Assembly (NCBI GenBank): GCA_963716985.1
Contig: OY970323.1
Coordinates: 1,280,001 to 1,344,000, forward strand
Direction of reading: 5' to 3'
Length of the DNA stretch: 64,000 nucleotides
Origin: an uncultured bacterium
GTDB taxonomy: Bacteria; Chlamydiota; Chlamydiia; Chlamydiales; SM23-39
Notes under the pieces: model-generated
What the model saw: the letters and a program-made list of their open reading frames with translations, nothing else
Told to the model about the DNA's origin: nothing
Databases searched by the model: none
Shown: positions 2,108 through 41,717 of the stretch, in pieces
Position numbering within the stretch: the stretch's first letter is position 1
How the letters are laid out: every line of letters starts with the position of its first letter
Made by a program: the position numbers and the translations under genes

Positions 2108-3205
2108 CTATTTCCCGGCAAGTTCTTTTGAAGAAAAGAGGGTTTTACAAAGAGAAAACGCCTCCTCCATCTCTTGAGGAGAAACCTTTTTTAAACAACT
2201 TCCCTCTCGACAGGTGCGAAGATGCGGACAGCACTTTTGAAACACATGCATGTAAGGACATTGTCCTTGAAAGGCTAAATGGCGCCCACCCGGGGGCTTG
2301 AAGATCTCGTGCCGCGTCGGTCCAAAAAAACTAAAGGTGGCAAGATGGGGCAAAGTGGCTCCCAAATGGAGTACGCAAGAATCGACGGCCAAAAGCAGAT
2401 CCACCCCCGACATCAAAACCTGCAAAGCCGGCAAGGAGAGCTTCTCAACAATCATGCTTTGGGGAAAAGAGGAGGAGAGCTTTTGCACTTCTTCTTTTTC
2501 CGCTTCATTGCCCCATATGAAATAGAAAAAAGAGTCTTTTTCACAGGAAATCTTTTCCAAAAAGAATTTCCAGAGAGAGGGAGAAAGCTTCTTATTTTCC
2601 CAGCGAGAAGAGGGGCTCACCAGGACTCGAAAAGAGGCGTTTTGCTTCACAAGATCTTCGCAATACCGGCTCTCTCTGTTTTTAGAAAGACGCAACAGGA
2701 TTCCCTCTGCCGAAAAGGGCTGTGAATCCTTCAAAAACCTCTGTGCAATTTCCAAATATTGCAAGCTCATGTGTTTTGTCAAATCGGGGTCAAAATGAAT
2801 ATGCGTGACAAAAAGGTTGGGCCATTCGCGCACCGATTTTGCCCCAAACCCTATCTTTTTTTTGCCTTTGGCGAAAAAAGTGAAAAAAACCGATTTGCAA
2901 TTGCCCTGGAGATCAAAAATCCAATCATATTTTTTTTTGCGCAAAAAAAGAATTTGCCGAAAGAGAGAAAGAAGAGTCGAAAAACCGCCTTTGAGCCGCA
3001 CCCCAATGGCGCGGTCAATCTTCGGGTGGGCCGCCACCAGATCCTCATAGCTTTTTTCCACAAGCCAATCGATCTTCGCATCGGGATGGCGCGCGCGCAG
3101 ATATTCGGCAACAATAAAAGACTGAAGGATGTCTCCAAGCGAAGAGCATTTAACGATGAGAATCTTCTTTTTCAAAAGCAAAACCTTCTCTAAAGATCCA
3201 ACCAT
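2108..3205 (-). CDS. Glycosyltransferase family 9 (LPS heptosyltransferase, WaaC/WaaF-like)
   Basis: ILIVKCSSLGDIL, YDWIFDLQG, VDSCVLHL, FFGPT, Cys-rich C-terminus. Confidence 0.85.
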   Translation of the reverse strand: MVGSLEKVLLLKKKILIVKCSSLGDILQSFIVAEYLRARHPDAKIDWLVEKSYEDLVAAHPKIDRAIGVRLKGGFSTLLSLFRQILFLRKKKYDWIFDLQGNCKSVFFTFFAKGKKKIGFGAKSVREWPNLFVTHIHFDPDLTKHMSLQYLEIAQRFLKDSQPFSAEGILLRLSKNRESRYCEDLVKQNASFRVLVSPSSRWENKKLSPSLWKFFLEKISCEKDSFFYFIWGNEAEKEEVQKLSSSFPQSMIVEKLSLPALQVLMSGVDLLLAVDSCVLHLGATLPHLATFSFFGPTRHEIFKPPGGRHLAFQGQCPYMHVFQKCCPHLRTCREGSCLKKVSPQEMEEAFSLCKTLFSSKELAGK

Positions 3206-3217
3206 TATAACGCAAAA

Positions 3218-4099
3218 CTAGACAAAAGAAAAAGATTTCAATGGCATGACGCCCCCCATGACCTCGGAAAATTCTTGGGGAAGAGAAGATTCAAACACCA
3301 ATTTTTCTCTAGTGACTGGATGGGTAAATTCCAGTCTTGCGCTGTGGAGCAAAAGACGTTTTACGTGGGATGGATAGGCAAATTTTTTCGCATAAGTGTA
3401 ATCCCCCAAAATAGGATGGCCTTTTTCAAAAAAATGGACGCGCAGCTGATGGGTTCTTCCCGTAACGGGCTGACAGAGCACAAGCGTTGCCTTTTTGATT
3501 TTTTTGAGTTTGCGAAAAAGGGTCAGCGCATGCTGCCCATTCTGCATCGAGCCGAAAAGGGCCATTTTTTGGCTTCTTCGGGCAAGGCGACTTTCGATCC
3601 GGCCCTTCTCTTCTTCTAGCGCGCCGTCGAGGATGGCAAGATAAAACTTTTTGACGTTGCCCGAGGCAAAAAGAGTGACCATCTTTTCTTTGATCCCTCG
3701 ATTTTTCGCCACCATCATGACGCCGCTGGTTCCCTGATCGAGGCGGTGAACAAATGTGGACCCCTTGGGAAAAGAAGATGGCAGGTTGCGATCTTCGCAA
3801 ACAAGGCCGCTTGGCTTATCGATGATAATGAGAAAATCATCCTCAAAAAGAACGCTTAGGGACTCTTGTCTTTCCGCTAAAAAATCCTTCCAATGGGAAA
3901 AAACTTCTAAACAATCTTTTTCCCTTAACTTCCTGGAAGCGAAAAGCTCTACCGCTCCGTTGATTTTACAAAATCCCTTCTCAATGAGTTTTCGTGCATA
4001 GCGGTTGGAAAGAGCGCATTTGATCTTGACAAAAGCAAGAAGAGAACTTCCTTCTTCAAATGTAGTTACGGTAAAGAGAAGAGTTTTTTCGTCTGTCAT
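3218..4099 (-). CDS. RluA-family pseudouridine synthase
   Basis: DKPSGL, VHRLDQGTSG, TGRTHQLRVH, GHPILGD; ATG 4099 overlaps the pepA stop (ATGA). Confidence 0.9.
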   Translation of the reverse strand: MTDEKTLLFTVTTFEEGSSLLAFVKIKCALSNRYARKLIEKGFCKINGAVELFASRKLREKDCLEVFSHWKDFLAERQESLSVLFEDDFLIIIDKPSGLVCEDRNLPSSFPKGSTFVHRLDQGTSGVMMVAKNRGIKEKMVTLFASGNVKKFYLAILDGALEEEKGRIESRLARRSQKMALFGSMQNGQHALTLFRKLKKIKKATLVLCQPVTGRTHQLRVHFFEKGHPILGDYTYAKKFAYPSHVKRLLLHSARLEFTHPVTREKLVFESSLPQEFSEVMGGVMPLKSFSFV

Positions 4100-36799: not shown

Positions 36800-37068
36800 C
36801 AGCTTGACAAAATATAGAGGGAATTGCAAAACCAATACAACTTTTTGTTCATAAGTCCCTCCAAAAAGTGTGCGCTGCTCCCCAAAAATTGGGCACTTGA
36901 ATAAGCCATAATTTCTTCCTCTCTCCATTTTCTGCTGCGCCATCCACGTTTTTTTGCCTTTTTCGAGCTACTCGATTTTTTGAATCTTTTTGGTCACAAG
37001 AATGTTTTTTTTCTAGATAAAACAATTCCCGATCTTTTAAATTGGATGCCTATTTTTGGAGAATGGAC

Positions 37069-38970
37069 ATGTATTGGTTTTTCCGCCTCTTACTGACTGG
37101 ACTTACAATGTTCAACGTCTGTTTTGCTGAAGAAGAGGAGGATGAATATCCCTGGATTGATAGCTACACAATTTCTTATGGTGGGATCAGTTTTGAATGC
37201 ACTAAAGGATGTGGCGATCCATTCTATAATCCGGGAATGGAAACGATCGATTCTATGTTTTATAACTGTCTTGAAAAAACAGTGGGTCATCCATCCCCTG
37301 CCTTATGGTGGTTATTCCCAAATGGCATGTCGGAAAAGCTGTGGGAACGAGAGGATATCTGTAAATATTCTGTCATGAATTGGCAGAGAGGAAAAAATAA
37401 AGCTAAAATTCAAGGATATGACACCTTCTTGCTAGATTCATATTCCCGTTTGCCAGTTGTTATCGAAAGATTTTACAAAGACTTGGGATATAATCACATT
37501 CAATCTCTTTCTGTTTACAATGAAAAAATTAAAGAAAAAAAATCCATTCTGGAAACTCTTGTGTCTTTGAAAAAGGATGGCTGTTTAAGCATTGACTATG
37601 ATCCTGATGGAAAAATGCTTGGGAATCATTACGCAGGCGGATATTCAATTGATATCGATGAGGCAATCGAGAGTGCTCAAGAAAAACTCAAGGAAGTAGA
37701 GAATGATATAGAGAGCGAACATGAGGAGTTCCATGATTCGATTGAAATTGCTGAAGAGACATTCAGAGAAATTGACGAACAATTCAAAAAAATCTTCATC
37801 CGGTGTCTTAATAACCACCAGCCCGAGGGGATCGCATTTAATAGTGCCTTAGAAAATTTTCTGCTGGGCGATATAGATGGAGGCGTCGCACAAATTCGCG
37901 AGCTCATTCAAACGGCAGAAGAGTGCGAATTAGGAGATGATCTCATCGCAAAGCTCTATTTTCTCAAAGGAGAAATACAAGCCGAAGGTTCTCTTTACGC
38001 AGATGCAATTGCAGATCTCACCACAGCAATCCAAAAAATGCCTTCCATGAAAGAAGCCTATCTTGAACGCGCTGCTAGCTATTTTGAACTTGGGAAGTTT
38101 GATCAGTCGATCCAAGATTATCTTTCATCGGGTATTCGCCCGACCTATGACACAAATCCTACAGATTGGGGTCTTGGCATTAGTGCAGGATTATTCAAAG
38201 GTGCCGGACAATCGGTGGCTGATTTTATCCCTTCTTCTCTTGTCACCCTACGTGGACTTGGCAATGGATTATGGACTTTTGTTAAAAGCCCAGTAGGGGC
38301 TTCTCGCGAATTGATTGAGTCTACGAAAAAACTTATCGAATTATTGCAGTCCAATTCAGCTATTGAAACATTGCAAGAAATCGTCCCTGAATTGAAAGAA
38401 CTCATTCAAAACAACAACAAGCTCAGCGATTTTAGAAAGGGTGAGTTGGTAGGTCTTGCGATCGGTAAATATGGAGTTGACATTTTTCTCGCCAAATATG
38501 GAACAACCGCGATTAAAGCATATCGTGAACTCAAACAGGCCAATCAGCTTATGACATTAGAAGCATTGGCAACTCCTCAAAAAACACAAACAATTCTTTC
38601 CGAAGCAAATAAACGATGGGCTCATCGAGAACAAGTCTTAAAAAACGCCACGCTCAATATCCAGTGGGATAAACTGGGGAAACATATGGAAGGCCATTAG
38701 AATTATGAAAAATTAGTGAATGATCATCGAAACCCAAGCATTTTTACTCATCCGAATCCTGAGAAGTTAATTAAAGAATATGCCGGAACTGGCATCAAAG
38801 ATATTAATCTTATACCTGGTACTCCAGCATATAGAGAGCTTGTGAATTTTAAAGAGTTTATTGGATATGCTGTTGACCCAAATACTGGGGAAAAAACTGC
38901 AACAACATGGGGCAAGATTCACTATGCAAAAGATGGAGTTCATATTGTTCCAAGCTTGCCAAGGAAATGA
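37069..38970 (+). pseudogene. Secreted TPR-containing polymorphic toxin with a C-terminal Ntox50-like domain; in-frame TAG at 38698-38700
   Basis: Signal peptide, TPRs, frame continues past the stop: GKHMEGH*NY…SIFTH…AGTG…ELVNFKEFIG…TTWGKIHYAKDGVHIVP. Confidence 0.8.
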
Positions 38971-39303
38971 CAGTTCTGCTTCCTCCAATATATGCAGCAT
39001 TATTCATTGAGATTGTTTAAGAAAAAAGATTGAGATATTAGGGATTTATAATTATGCTCTCGCCTTTAAATACTTTACTATTGGATATTCAAGGTGCATT
39101 AATCAATGCCGTCGCACCTTCCTTGAGGGCTGTTACTGGGGTGTGACAAACAATCAGAAGACGTCCAACAATGGCCCAAGAGAGCCGTAGTACTACCCCC
39201 CTATTTTTTGTCCAACTTTACTACACAAACCTTTCAATAAAATCTTGACTTCACAACAACAAAACCGTCACAATGTTTAGTCATTTTTCCCGATAGGATA
39301 AAA

Positions 39304-39669
39304 ATGAAGAAAGAACGGCCTGGTGAATTGCACCAGAAAATCAAGCGGCTACGAACATCCAGAGATGCGCTGAAGCATCACAATTATGAAAAAACCCAGC
39401 AGAACAAAAAACTTCGCGACAGGAATGTAGAGATTGCTGAAAGTCGCGATCATTGGAAAGATCGTAATAAAGAGCTTGACCAGCAAAAGGAAGGCCTGGA
39501 GCAACAAATACAAGTTGCGCAGGAGAGATTACTGGAGGCTCAAGAGAAGATACAGACTGCAAAGAAAGAGATAGAGCGCGAGCGAATACGAGCTGATGAG
39601 GAACGCAGGCGCGCAGATCAACTCCAAACTGAAATTGAAGCAGCTCGAAAAAAAAAACAGGGGTCTTGA
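39304..39669 (+). CDS. IS orfA, coiled-coil protein
   Basis: 121-aa charged helical ORF ending just after an A10 run. Confidence 0.75.
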   Translation: MKKERPGELHQKIKRLRTSRDALKHHNYEKTQQNKKLRDRNVEIAESRDHWKDRNKELDQQKEGLEQQIQVAQERLLEAQEKIQTAKKEIERERIRADEERRRADQLQTEIEAARKKKQGS

Positions 39670-41020
39670 AAATTTGATTCCAAAGATGGGAGAGAAAGCC
39701 CCGCGTGGTTGGTATCCCATCTTGATGATCATCATGTGCATTAGGCTAGTGCTCCAAGCTACTATTTCATTTCGCGCAGCTCCTAAGGCGATTCATATTG
39801 CATTTTCTCAATTCGATGCTGTCAAAGATCAACCGATTCCAACATACAAAAGCATCAGCAGATGGCTAACGCAGATAGGTCTCTATAAGTTGAATTGCCC
39901 GAAAGAACAAGCAAATGACTGGGCACTAGTCATTGACAATTCAGTCCAAATTGGTACTCAAAAATGTCTTGTAATTTTAGGAATGCGTCTGAGTAAGTTT
40001 CAGAAGGGAAAAGCACTAACTCTCGAGGACATGGAAGTACTGATTATAGAGCTCCATGATCAGTCCAACGCGAATATTGTCTGCAGGGCATTGGAGAATG
40101 CACAGAAAAAAATTGGAAAGGCTGCTATGGTATGCGCTGATGATGGTTCAGATCTCCGAGGCGGAATTGAACTGTTTTGTCAGAAGCATGGTGCTGGCCG
40201 CGTTTTTGACACTATTCATAAAATTGGCACTTTTTTAAAAAAGATTTTCGAGGATGATTCGGAATGGCAAGCTTTTTCAACAGCTGCGGCAGCTGCCAAG
40301 AATAAGATGCAGCAAACACAGGCAGCTCATCTCATGCCACCCAACCAAAGGACGAAGTCTCGATTCCTCAATATCGAGATTCTTGCGCGATGGGGAATTG
40401 ACATTATGGTTGCCATAGATACGCCGAACCATCCTGACAAGGATCTGCTCGAACAATACTGTGGCTGGATTCGTCAATATACAGGGCTCATTGAAAGATT
40501 GAAACAATTTGACCTCATCAGTCGGAAAACTAGACAGTATATCCGCGAGAATGGAGTGAGTTTTAGCACAGGAGAGCAGATAGATGCATTTTTGGAAGAG
40601 GAAATGAAGTCCTTAAATTTTAATGCAGAAGCATGCGAATACGCTGGAGCGCTGATAGATTTCTTCTACGAACAGTCGAAAGTCGTCCCTTTTGGACAAA
40701 CCTGGCTTGGTTCAAGCGAAATCATAGAATCTCTATTTGGAAAATTGAAAAGTCTCGAGAATGACCAAAGCAAGGGAGGCTTCACGCCGCTTATTCTGGG
40801 AGTAGCTGCGTGCGTCGGTAAAGTGGATATTGCTTTGGTGAAGGCAGCCATGACACATATAAAGATAAGTGATGTCGACACGTGGACAAGAGAACAGGTC
40901 GGATCGACGCTACTTTCCAGAAGAAGGAAAGCTTTGGCGTTCTGGAGAAAAAAGAATTTTCAAAAAAATATTGTACACGAATCGGCTGGAGCCGTCAGGA
41001 GCGAAGCGATTGGTTTTTAG
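39596..41020 (+). CDS. IS orfB, DDE transposase (start uncertain)
   Basis: LVIDNS, CADDGSD, DTIH (DxxH), SSEIIESLFG. Confidence 0.8.
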   Translation: MRNAGAQINSKLKLKQLEKKNRGLENLIPKMGEKAPRGWYPILMIIMCIRLVLQATISFRAAPKAIHIAFSQFDAVKDQPIPTYKSISRWLTQIGLYKLNCPKEQANDWALVIDNSVQIGTQKCLVILGMRLSKFQKGKALTLEDMEVLIIELHDQSNANIVCRALENAQKKIGKAAMVCADDGSDLRGGIELFCQKHGAGRVFDTIHKIGTFLKKIFEDDSEWQAFSTAAAAAKNKMQQTQAAHLMPPNQRTKSRFLNIEILARWGIDIMVAIDTPNHPDKDLLEQYCGWIRQYTGLIERLKQFDLISRKTRQYIRENGVSFSTGEQIDAFLEEEMKSLNFNAEACEYAGALIDFFYEQSKVVPFGQTWLGSSEIIESLFGKLKSLENDQSKGGFTPLILGVAACVGKVDIALVKAAMTHIKISDVDTWTREQVGSTLLSRRRKALAFWRKKNFQKNIVHESAGAVRSEAIGF

Positions 41021-41717
41021 TGGTCAACTATCAATTTGTCACACCCCAGGCTGTTACTGCTGATATTGACTTAAAGAACAAAAAGTTAATTTTGTTTTTT
41101 TTCTACGATGGAATCATTACTGATAAATTATTTGACTTAGCAAGTGTTGCGGCTACTGAAGCCGGCGTTTCGCTGCCCGAATATTTTACTGATGATCACT
41201 ATGTTCAATTGGATTATCCCAAAGAAATTCCCATTCAAGGCAAACTTGCTTATTTACGATACGAACCTCATTTACCGAAATTTAAGAAAGAAAACCGATC
41301 TTATCTTCTAAAACAATCGAGGCCATCCGTTGTTCTTCTGCTTGATATGCAAGAAGCTTTGTTGGGAAAAGTAACCCCCTCTTTACGTCGCGCAGCAGGA
41401 GAAGTCGACATCGAAAATAAACGATTGATCTTTTATTTTGTATACGATGGAAAAATCTCTGAAACAGATTATCGATTGGCTACTGCTGCAATTCAAGAGT
41501 CCGGCTCTTCTTTTCCCGGCTATATAATAGAATCTCACATCGATAGAATCGACTATCCAAATGAAAGATCCACATACAAATGTTATGGAGCTTATTTAAG
41601 ACAAGAAGATTGAGGAAGCTCAGGCGAGCCCGGCTTTGCCAGGAGATGTAGGCGCACCTCATGTTTTCTGGAGAAAAATTGAGCGGCTGTCGGGCTGTGT
41701 TCTCTACTGATGGAGAG

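Follow-up and report, generated by a model that had tools for sequence, protein, structure and literature searches.

The window analysed here is a stretch of 64,000 nucleotides from an uncultured member of the Chlamydiota (assembly GCA_963716985.1, contig OY970323.1, positions 1,280,001 to 1,344,000 of the forward strand), and it contains on its plus strand the remains of a toxin gene, encoding a multi-domain protein termed the carrier, and of a downstream immunity gene. The locus is very likely a degenerate representative of a polymorphic toxin-immunity family found widely among Chlamydiota and predicted to rely on Sec for its export. An intact carrier comprises about 630 amino acids (aa) and contains, in this order, a predicted signal peptide, an N-domain, about three predicted tetratricopeptide repeats (TPRs), a glycine-zipper/helical module and a C-terminal toxin, which in the window is an Ntox50 RNase domain of the BECR fold (PF15542). 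In the window copy this domain is interrupted by an in-frame TAG codon, and the immunity gene is split by an insertion sequence (IS). An earlier note, made from the DNA letters and their open reading frames (ORFs), had listed a signal peptide, an acidic N-domain, TPRs, Gly-rich helices and Ntox50 motifs and had read the locus as a toxin-immunity pair. All of these features, the signal peptide and the TPRs as predictions, are present on the plus strand where it had placed them, and the toxin-immunity reading is supported by the Ntox50 match, the covarying downstream genes and the orphan cassettes described below, but this particular copy is dead.

The Ntox50 Toxin Domain and Its Interruption

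The carrier frame, as delimited by ORF analysis, extends on the plus strand from 37063 to the premature stop at 38700, with ATG 37063 or ATG 37069 as the start codon and a TTG upstream at 37042; the full-length proteins among its 76 homologues have 600-650 aa. The premature stop is a TAG at 38698-38700, beyond which the same frame stays open for 89 codons up to a TGA at 38968-38970. Residue numbers given in the following refer to the read-through protein (P0001), in which the TAG is written as X at residue 545. The 89-aa piece past the TAG matches Ntox50 with 70.4 bits (E 2.2e-19, profile positions 21-92 of 92) and the read-through protein does so with 80.7 bits (E 1.4e-22, profile positions 3-92, residues 534-629), compared to a Pfam cut-off of 22.2 bits, which confirms the Ntox50 identity suggested earlier from the motifs. 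As the read-through match extends over profile positions 3-92, the TAG lies inside the toxin domain (38662..38952, plus strand, residues 534-629, model pLDDT of about 94). It is located at about position 14 of the profile and five residues past the K539-H540 motif, which it separates from S558, H619 and the H626-x-V628-P629 motif, and all of these conserved Ntox50 residues are present in the alignment. A scan of the whole genome (2.07 Mb) returned the window copy as its sole Ntox50 domain (84.9 bits, with one TAG inside), and none of 14 control genomes gave a match.

Moreover, the tip resembles Ntox50 toxins of solved structure. A profile built from an alignment of the window carrier and 33 homologues (A1, 34 rows) matches the C-terminal domain of YxiD (9V8I) with E 1.6e-20 and MafB2 (8HHJ) with E 9.6e-12. 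The modelled tip superimposes on 9v8i_B in Foldseek with E 1.8e-4, TM 0.80, rmsd 1.8, 104 columns and 38% identity, and in VIA with Z 15.0, rmsd 2.6 and 103 aligned residues. YxiD was shown to be a BECR-fold tRNase of the Ntox50 family that is neutralised 1:1 by an adjacent immunity protein (PMC12700104), and MafB2-CT is an RNase that requires three histidines and forms a 1:1 complex with MafI2 with a Kd of about 40 nM (PMC9970974). By our own reading of the alignment, the counterparts of these three histidines would be H540, H619 and H626.

No suppressor tRNA is found among the genome's 41 tRNAs, and TAG is the terminator of 173 of its 918 open frames of at least 300 codons. The reading as a suppressed TAG was rejected on these grounds, and the codon is a real stop unless the assembly is in error. 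That the toxin gene is still active, in a locus that is half broken, with the TAG being either an assembly error or read through, might be argued from the presence of a single stop without any frameshift and of 89 further codons retaining all conserved residues. However, all three genes of the immunity family in this genome are broken, which fits a toxin that is already harmless, and copies of the carrier with internal stops also occur in other genomes of a sample of 400 taken across the phylum. Together with the tRNA complement and the regular use of TAG as terminator this makes an active toxin gene highly improbable. Judging from its sequence, the window copy is a pseudogene of the Ntox50 family, its domain being interrupted by the TAG and split into two pieces of one and the same frame.

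The Immunity Gene, Its Kinship to MafI2 and Its Disruption

The immunity gene starts with an ATG at 39054. Its 5' piece (39054..39136, plus strand) encodes the first helix of repeat 1 (match E 1.1e-5), and its MafI2-like 3' piece (41058..41613, plus strand; 246.6 bits) encodes the rest of repeat 1 and the full repeat 2. Both pieces are collinear with intact homologues of 209-260 aa, which are built from two repeats, each about 95 aa long. The two-repeat gene described in the earlier note is real but not contiguous, being split by an IS of 1912 bp. In 70 of 78 related loci, homologues of the window type follow the toxin gene directly on its 3' side and in the same orientation, and they take the form of a single domain, of two fused domains or of tandem arrays. 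By inspection, the N-terminus of the immunity protein is without a signal-like stretch.

Neither Pfam nor NCBIfam contains a family matched by the two pieces. However, a profile of the immunity proteins (A3) matches MafI2 (8hhj_A) with E 2.7e-4 and an aligned stretch of 91 of 108 residues; this is the sole match below E 0.01, the only other one listed up to E 10 having E 0.83. An intact homologue was modelled with pLDDT 91.1 and pTM 0.89. Its fold comprises two alpha-beta-beta-alpha-beta-beta repeats, and the sole Foldseek match of the model at E <= 0.001 is again 8hhj_A (E 1.3e-5, TM 0.72, rmsd 2.5, 98 columns). These matches indicate that the immunity domain is not a new kind of domain and that it is related to MafI2 of Neisseria. 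For an intact natural pair (locus L013) a complex was predicted with a score of 0.86, the best of three controls reaching 0.01, and the runs had a contact agreement of at least 88% and a partner pLDDT of at least 88. Solved complexes attain the mark of 0.86 in 116 of 157 cases and mismatched pairs in 2 of 215; as like complexes have already been solved, the score stands for likeness and is not a proof of binding. In the predicted complex both immunity repeats contact the face carrying K539, H619 and H626, and the immunity protein, in which a MafI2-like domain is duplicated in tandem, is predicted to form a cover over the catalytic face of the RNase.

In a subset of loci the Ntox50-tipped carrier is followed by an unrelated protein of 229 aa (L023:4071-4760 and relatives), which has no Pfam match and replaces the MafI2-like gene. 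It is the first downstream ORF in five cases and is present in 10 of 109 loci, and it may represent a second Ntox50 immunity family.

The IS that splits the immunity gene (39137..41048, plus strand) contains ORFs at 39304-39669 and 39596-41020, ends in 14-bp perfect terminal inverted repeats and is flanked by a 9-bp target duplication (39128-39136 and 41049-41057). The genome contains eight copies, seven of which are identical base for base and all of which are flanked by 9-bp target duplications, indicating that the element moved recently. The other copies are located on the genome contig (G000:C1) at 105200, 236243, 468020, 727935, 1607493, 1839904 and 1973467, and within the one at 727935-731761 a further insert, about 1.9 kb long, is nested. 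The transposase (474 aa) has no match in Pfam or NCBIfam; by tblastn against the genome only its eight copies and one relative with 71-72% identity at about 154462-156137 were found. In a protein atlas it falls with unnamed clusters at 0.98-0.99, and Mutator-like families follow at 0.79-0.82, a level that provides a lead only. An ORF for a coiled-coil protein of 121 aa overlaps the start of the transposase gene in a different frame.

Variable Tips and Covarying Downstream Genes

When the 544 aa of the carrier were searched against a database, 76 proteins were identified, mostly of 600-650 aa. Furthermore, scans of species-representative genomes yielded 78 and 79 loci, all from metagenome-assembled genomes of Chlamydiota type, some of them labelled Verrucomicrobia; alignment queries were used for these scans, as a single-protein carrier query of genome contigs returned no loci. 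The central module of the carrier was found in 157 ORFs, of which 115 were 3'-complete and non-redundant and 112 had tails of at least 60 aa behind the module.

The tails of these 112 carriers, which diverge after a common LKxANxxxTLE junction, fall into eight classes (T1-T8), and between the classes of tails and those of the first downstream ORFs (D) not a single cross-pairing was observed in 100 pairs. Class T1, the Ntox50 tip (n=89, an inflated count, see below), is followed by D1, the immunity gene of the window type, in 73 cases, by D3 in five, by D5 in two and by no class in nine; the one D5 case that was checked is an overlapping out-of-frame ORF. Class T2 (n=12) pairs with D2 in eleven cases and has no downstream class in one, and all five T3 tails pair with D4. 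The two T4 tails, which match DUF6883 (62.1 bits), are both without a downstream ORF class, and T5 to T8 (n=1 each) have each their own singleton downstream. The tip of T7 is a DNase of the LHH/colicin-pyocin type (its two model scores, 32.6 and 28.5 bits, pass the cut-off), so that three tail classes exceed the cut-off for Pfam toxin or DUF models; tips T2, T3, T5, T6 and T8 have no match in Pfam or NCBIfam. A weak Ntox35 match of protein P0075 (E 0.0065, below cut-off) was not relied on. No other flanking gene family occurs in more than 6 of 109 loci, and no linked helper gene (MafA, CdiB, VgrG) is evident there. The expectation that C-terminal toxins would be swappable and matched by downstream genes is borne out by these eight classes without crossing, and the C-termini of the family are not invariant.

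Next to variable tips and covarying immunity genes, this genome contains orphan cassettes at a paralogous locus (G000:C1:541953-546783; L004:3954-8783), where a carrier of 670 aa is followed by two tip-plus-immunity cassettes whose 5' ends share 96% and 94% DNA identity with the preceding copy; at the window locus no such cassettes are present. Such an array would be a classic substrate for tip switching. Variable tips, a covarying downstream immunity gene and orphan cassettes with a homology tract are among the features by which polymorphic toxin systems were defined (Zhang et al., 2012; PMC3482391), and the family displays these three.

The same data bear on the main rival explanation, in which the protein is a host-directed effector: the RNase would be exported to the inclusion or the host and cut eukaryotic RNA, and the downstream protein would protect the producer prior to export. 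All relatives derive from Chlamydiota-type genomes and therewith from dwellers in eukaryotic cells, TPRs are common in effectors of intracellular bacteria, and endosymbiont toxins with TPR, Sel1 or ankyrin repeats were considered as probably host-directed (Zhang et al., 2012; PMC3482391). However, the same source takes the absence of an immunity gene as the mark of host-directed toxins, and here immunity genes accompany the toxin in 70 of 78 loci, often as tandem arrays. The covariation of tips and downstream genes and the existence of orphan cassettes likewise speak against it. The host-directed reading is weakened by the immunity arrays, by orphan immunity genes and by a tip of the colicin/pyocin DNase type, and we consider it unlikely.

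Domain Organization of the Carrier

The AlphaFold model of the carrier has a mean pLDDT of 76.9. The predicted Sec signal peptide (37063..37128, plus strand), recognised by inspection, consists of a hydrophobic helix with a small-residue motif at its end, a plausible cleavage site, and a subsequent acidic run; in the model residues 2-19 form a signal-like helix, and a hydropathy script showed that, of 75 homologues whose 5' ends are complete, many have a hydrophobic N-terminal segment. An alpha/beta N-domain with a long acidic helical hairpin follows (37153..37815, plus strand, residues about 30-250, pLDDT of about 90). Its residues C45, C49, W93 and W106 are conserved in A1; the domain differs among carrier subfamilies and is covered by only about half of the homologues. 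In fold searches with the whole model the match lists were filled by TPR and Ntox50 structures.

About three TPR-like helix pairs (37828..38130, plus strand, residues 255-355) are preceded by the sequence C247..H251-Q252..E254-G255. The TPR_1 score of the window copy (24.0 bits) lies below the cut-off of 27.8 bits, which is exceeded by relatives, among them the paralogue with 34.5 bits. Residues 250-360 of the model match TPR structures with Z 14-16, values that helical repeat proteins often reach as well. Where the N-domain meets the TPRs (window 37804-37830, residues 247-255), 34 of 34 close homologues have the motif C-L-x-x-H-Q-x-E-G without any change, and C247 and H251 are retained in at least 90% of diverse carriers; a role of this motif as processing or metal site is conceivable.

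The most conserved part of the carrier is the glycine-zipper/helical module behind the TPRs. It starts with the glycine-zipper helices (38164..38286, plus strand, residues 367-407), which follow the pattern G371xxxG375xxxG379 ... F387-x-P389 ... G397xxxG401-L-W403. The glycines G371, G375 and G379 are kept in 34, 34 and 33 of the 34 rows of A1 and in 21, 21 and 19 of the 21 rows of a more diverse alignment (A2). The subsequent helical pre-toxin region (38305..38646, plus strand, residues 414-527) contains the motifs VPELKEL and IGKYG as well as the LKxANxxxTLE junction.

Apart from the TPRs and the tip, the carrier has no family match in Pfam and NCBIfam, the central module being unmatched. 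In agreement with the earlier note, no RHS, CdiA, LXG/WXG or MafB-N (DUF1020) domain and no PAAR/VgrG domain of type VI secretion was found with Pfam in the carrier at E <= 1; for the paralogue carrier the RHS, CdiA, LXG/WXG and PAAR/VgrG domains were absent at E <= 0.1.

The domain order also bears on the idea that the locus is an intracellular toxin-antitoxin (addiction) module instead of a secreted weapon. A toxin gene followed by the gene of its neutraliser would suit such a module, and BECR RNases are also used in toxin-antitoxin systems (Zhang et al., 2012; PMC3482391). However, about 530 aa of conserved non-toxin sequence beginning with a signal-like helix, the toxin-first gene order, the polymorphic tips and the orphan cassettes argue against it, and of the explanations considered here an addiction module is the one with hardly any probability.

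State of the System in the Genome and Distribution in Chlamydiota

Three genes of the immunity family are present in this genome, and none of them is intact. The one in the window is split by the IS, and the other two are disrupted by frameshifts or a TGA. These two form a second, toxin-less locus (G000:C1:493779-495114; L149:3280-4621) of tandem two-repeat immunity genes. A small gene pair located just upstream of it (L149:2615-2947 and 2847-3263) has by eye the look of a HigB/HigA-type toxin-antitoxin system. The pattern of lesions indicates that the entire Ntox50 system of this genome is in decay, with a non-working window locus whose state corresponds to ordinary pseudogenisation.

The paralogous locus, which has other tips, appears to be intact. 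Its 670-aa carrier contains a hydrophobic stretch in its interior and a helical tip without annotation, and a gene for 79 aa lies downstream of it. The two orphan cassettes share an unannotated tip class (GFxTFPRPKGIP...RVMPG...AHIPL), and the immunity gene of each encodes 122-123 aa with a weak match to the SCO4402 family (E 2.5e-5, below cut-off). On the minus strand, the locus is adjoined by a gene (L004:2292-3668) for a protein of 458 aa that combines ankyrin repeats with an N-terminus resembling a RING finger (its Pfam score is under the cut-off) and looks like an E3 ligase effector of the eukaryotic type.

Regarding secretion, a GspE-like gene (618.8 bits, cut-off 630) is located beside a gene for a GspD-like secretin, the pair being found at 168168-171532. 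Apart from this pair, a single frame of 1449 codons (G000:C1:1866195-1870262) has several matches to GspD-like secretins.

The carrier is present in 11 of 30 relatives (9 of 18 of the same family) and absent from the single relative that belongs to the same genus (genome 99% complete); within this set the internal stop is confined to the copy of the present genome. Across the phylum, the A2 profile matches with E <= 1e-10 in 176 of 400 evenly sampled genomes, a number that is an upper bound for the carrier because A2 includes columns of the tip. These matches comprise 146 of 334 high-quality genomes and 108 of 212 genera, and in one family 0 of 29 genomes match.

A Proposed Mechanism and Its Implications

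In an intact system, the carrier would be exported by Sec and perhaps by means of the type II secretion genes of the genome. The TPRs, for which a part in delivery is a candidate role, and the variable N-domain might bind a target or partner, and the glycine-zipper module might engage the membrane, enabling the RNase to enter a rival bacterium. There, the RNase would cut tRNA or other RNA, and the cytoplasmic immunity protein would shield the producer.

Several points weigh against this polymorphic toxin-immunity reading. Toxicity, secretion and target are all what we infer, and a bacterial target would need co-infection, since an obligately intracellular life is presumed for the organism. Among the close homologues one tip prevails, Ntox50 being found in 57 of 76, so that much of the family resembles a stable orthologue group and not a rapid shuffler, and the count of 89 T1 tails is inflated, two of the three patterns of one locus search lying in Ntox50. 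The signal peptide was called by eye and with a hydropathy script only, and the glycine-zipper region is poorly modelled (pLDDT 33-45), its membrane role being a proposal. The score of the L013 complex may reflect likeness to 8HHJ and 9V8I. Finally, the TAG could be an assembly error.

Taking the idea one step further, signal peptide, TPRs, glycine zipper and helical module may together form a self-contained, Chlamydiota-specific delivery platform for bacteriocin-like nucleases directed against rivals in the same host cell or inclusion, with the zipper as membrane-crossing device. We hold this possibility to be less probable than not. If true, such a platform would underlie superinfection exclusion as well as the protection of amoebae by symbionts from other intracellular bacteria. 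Chlamydiae are usually regarded as fighting their hosts and not one another. With nuclease tips that can be swapped, immunity genes that match them, orphan cassettes, orphan immunity genes and a profile match in 176 of 400 genomes, the family would mean that inter-bacterial conflict is routine for environmental chlamydiae. How a chlamydial symbiont guards amoebae from Legionella was described as an open question in a study in which polymorphic toxin domains in the Protochlamydia genome were merely remarked upon (König et al., 2019; PMC6520448), and the family described here is a concrete candidate for this protection.

Comparison With Known Systems

The family shares its modular logic with colicins and pyocins, in which N-terminal uptake parts are joined to a C-terminal nuclease and the immunity gene comes next, and the T7 tip matches a DNase model of this group. 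The carrier differs in that no colicin translocation or receptor domain was matched in it by Pfam. Colicins are not known to carry a signal peptide and are released by lysis.

The general class to which the chlamydial family belongs is that of the Sec/type II secretion system (T2SS) toxins with TPR, Sel1 or ankyrin repeats (Zhang et al., 2012; PMC3482391). In that survey, TPRs are named among the repeats of Sec/T2SS polymorphic toxins, the signal peptide is given as leader, T2SS is listed among the export routes of Ntox50, chlamydiae are counted among the phyla with Ntox50, and immunity-linked polymorphic toxins in endosymbionts are called 'relatively rare'. The passages on pre-toxin domains define none that is like the module described here, and its Additional File 1 may list these proteins. 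The suggestion of the earlier note that the delivery class had not been described before holds in part: TPRs on Sec-exported toxins and chlamydial Ntox50 are both found in the survey, whereas for the carrier family itself no description was found in full-text searches on Ntox50, chlamydial polymorphic toxins and interbacterial competition, with the survey's supplement as a place where members may be listed.

YxiD-YxxD of Bacillus subtilis (9V8I; PMC12700104) provides with YxiD the closest solved relative of the tip (E 1.6e-20, 38% identity). Its immunity protein YxxD differs in that it does not match the A3 immunity profile, MafI2 being the only one to do so. The carrier of YxiD is of the LXG/type VII kind.

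The closest known system is the Maf system of Neisseria (MafB2-CT2/MafI2, 8HHJ; PMC9970974). In both, a toxin with a Sec signal, which is a prediction for the chlamydial carrier, joins a conserved N-terminal part to tips that can be swapped; both also have orphan cassettes and place the immunity gene right behind the toxin gene, and both use the same tip family (E 9.6e-12) together with a related immunity domain (E 2.7e-4; TM 0.72). In contrast, the chlamydial carrier is unrelated to that of Maf, having instead of DUF1020/MafB-N another N-domain, TPRs and the glycine-zipper/helical module, and the 109 chlamydial loci have no MafA-like or other conserved helper nearby. The immunity domain is tandemly duplicated here, and phylum and lifestyle differ. 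Ntox50, which is given without an immunity protein in the catalogue of 2012 as far as its treatment of this domain is concerned (PMC3482391), is now linked across phyla to immunity of the MafI2 type.

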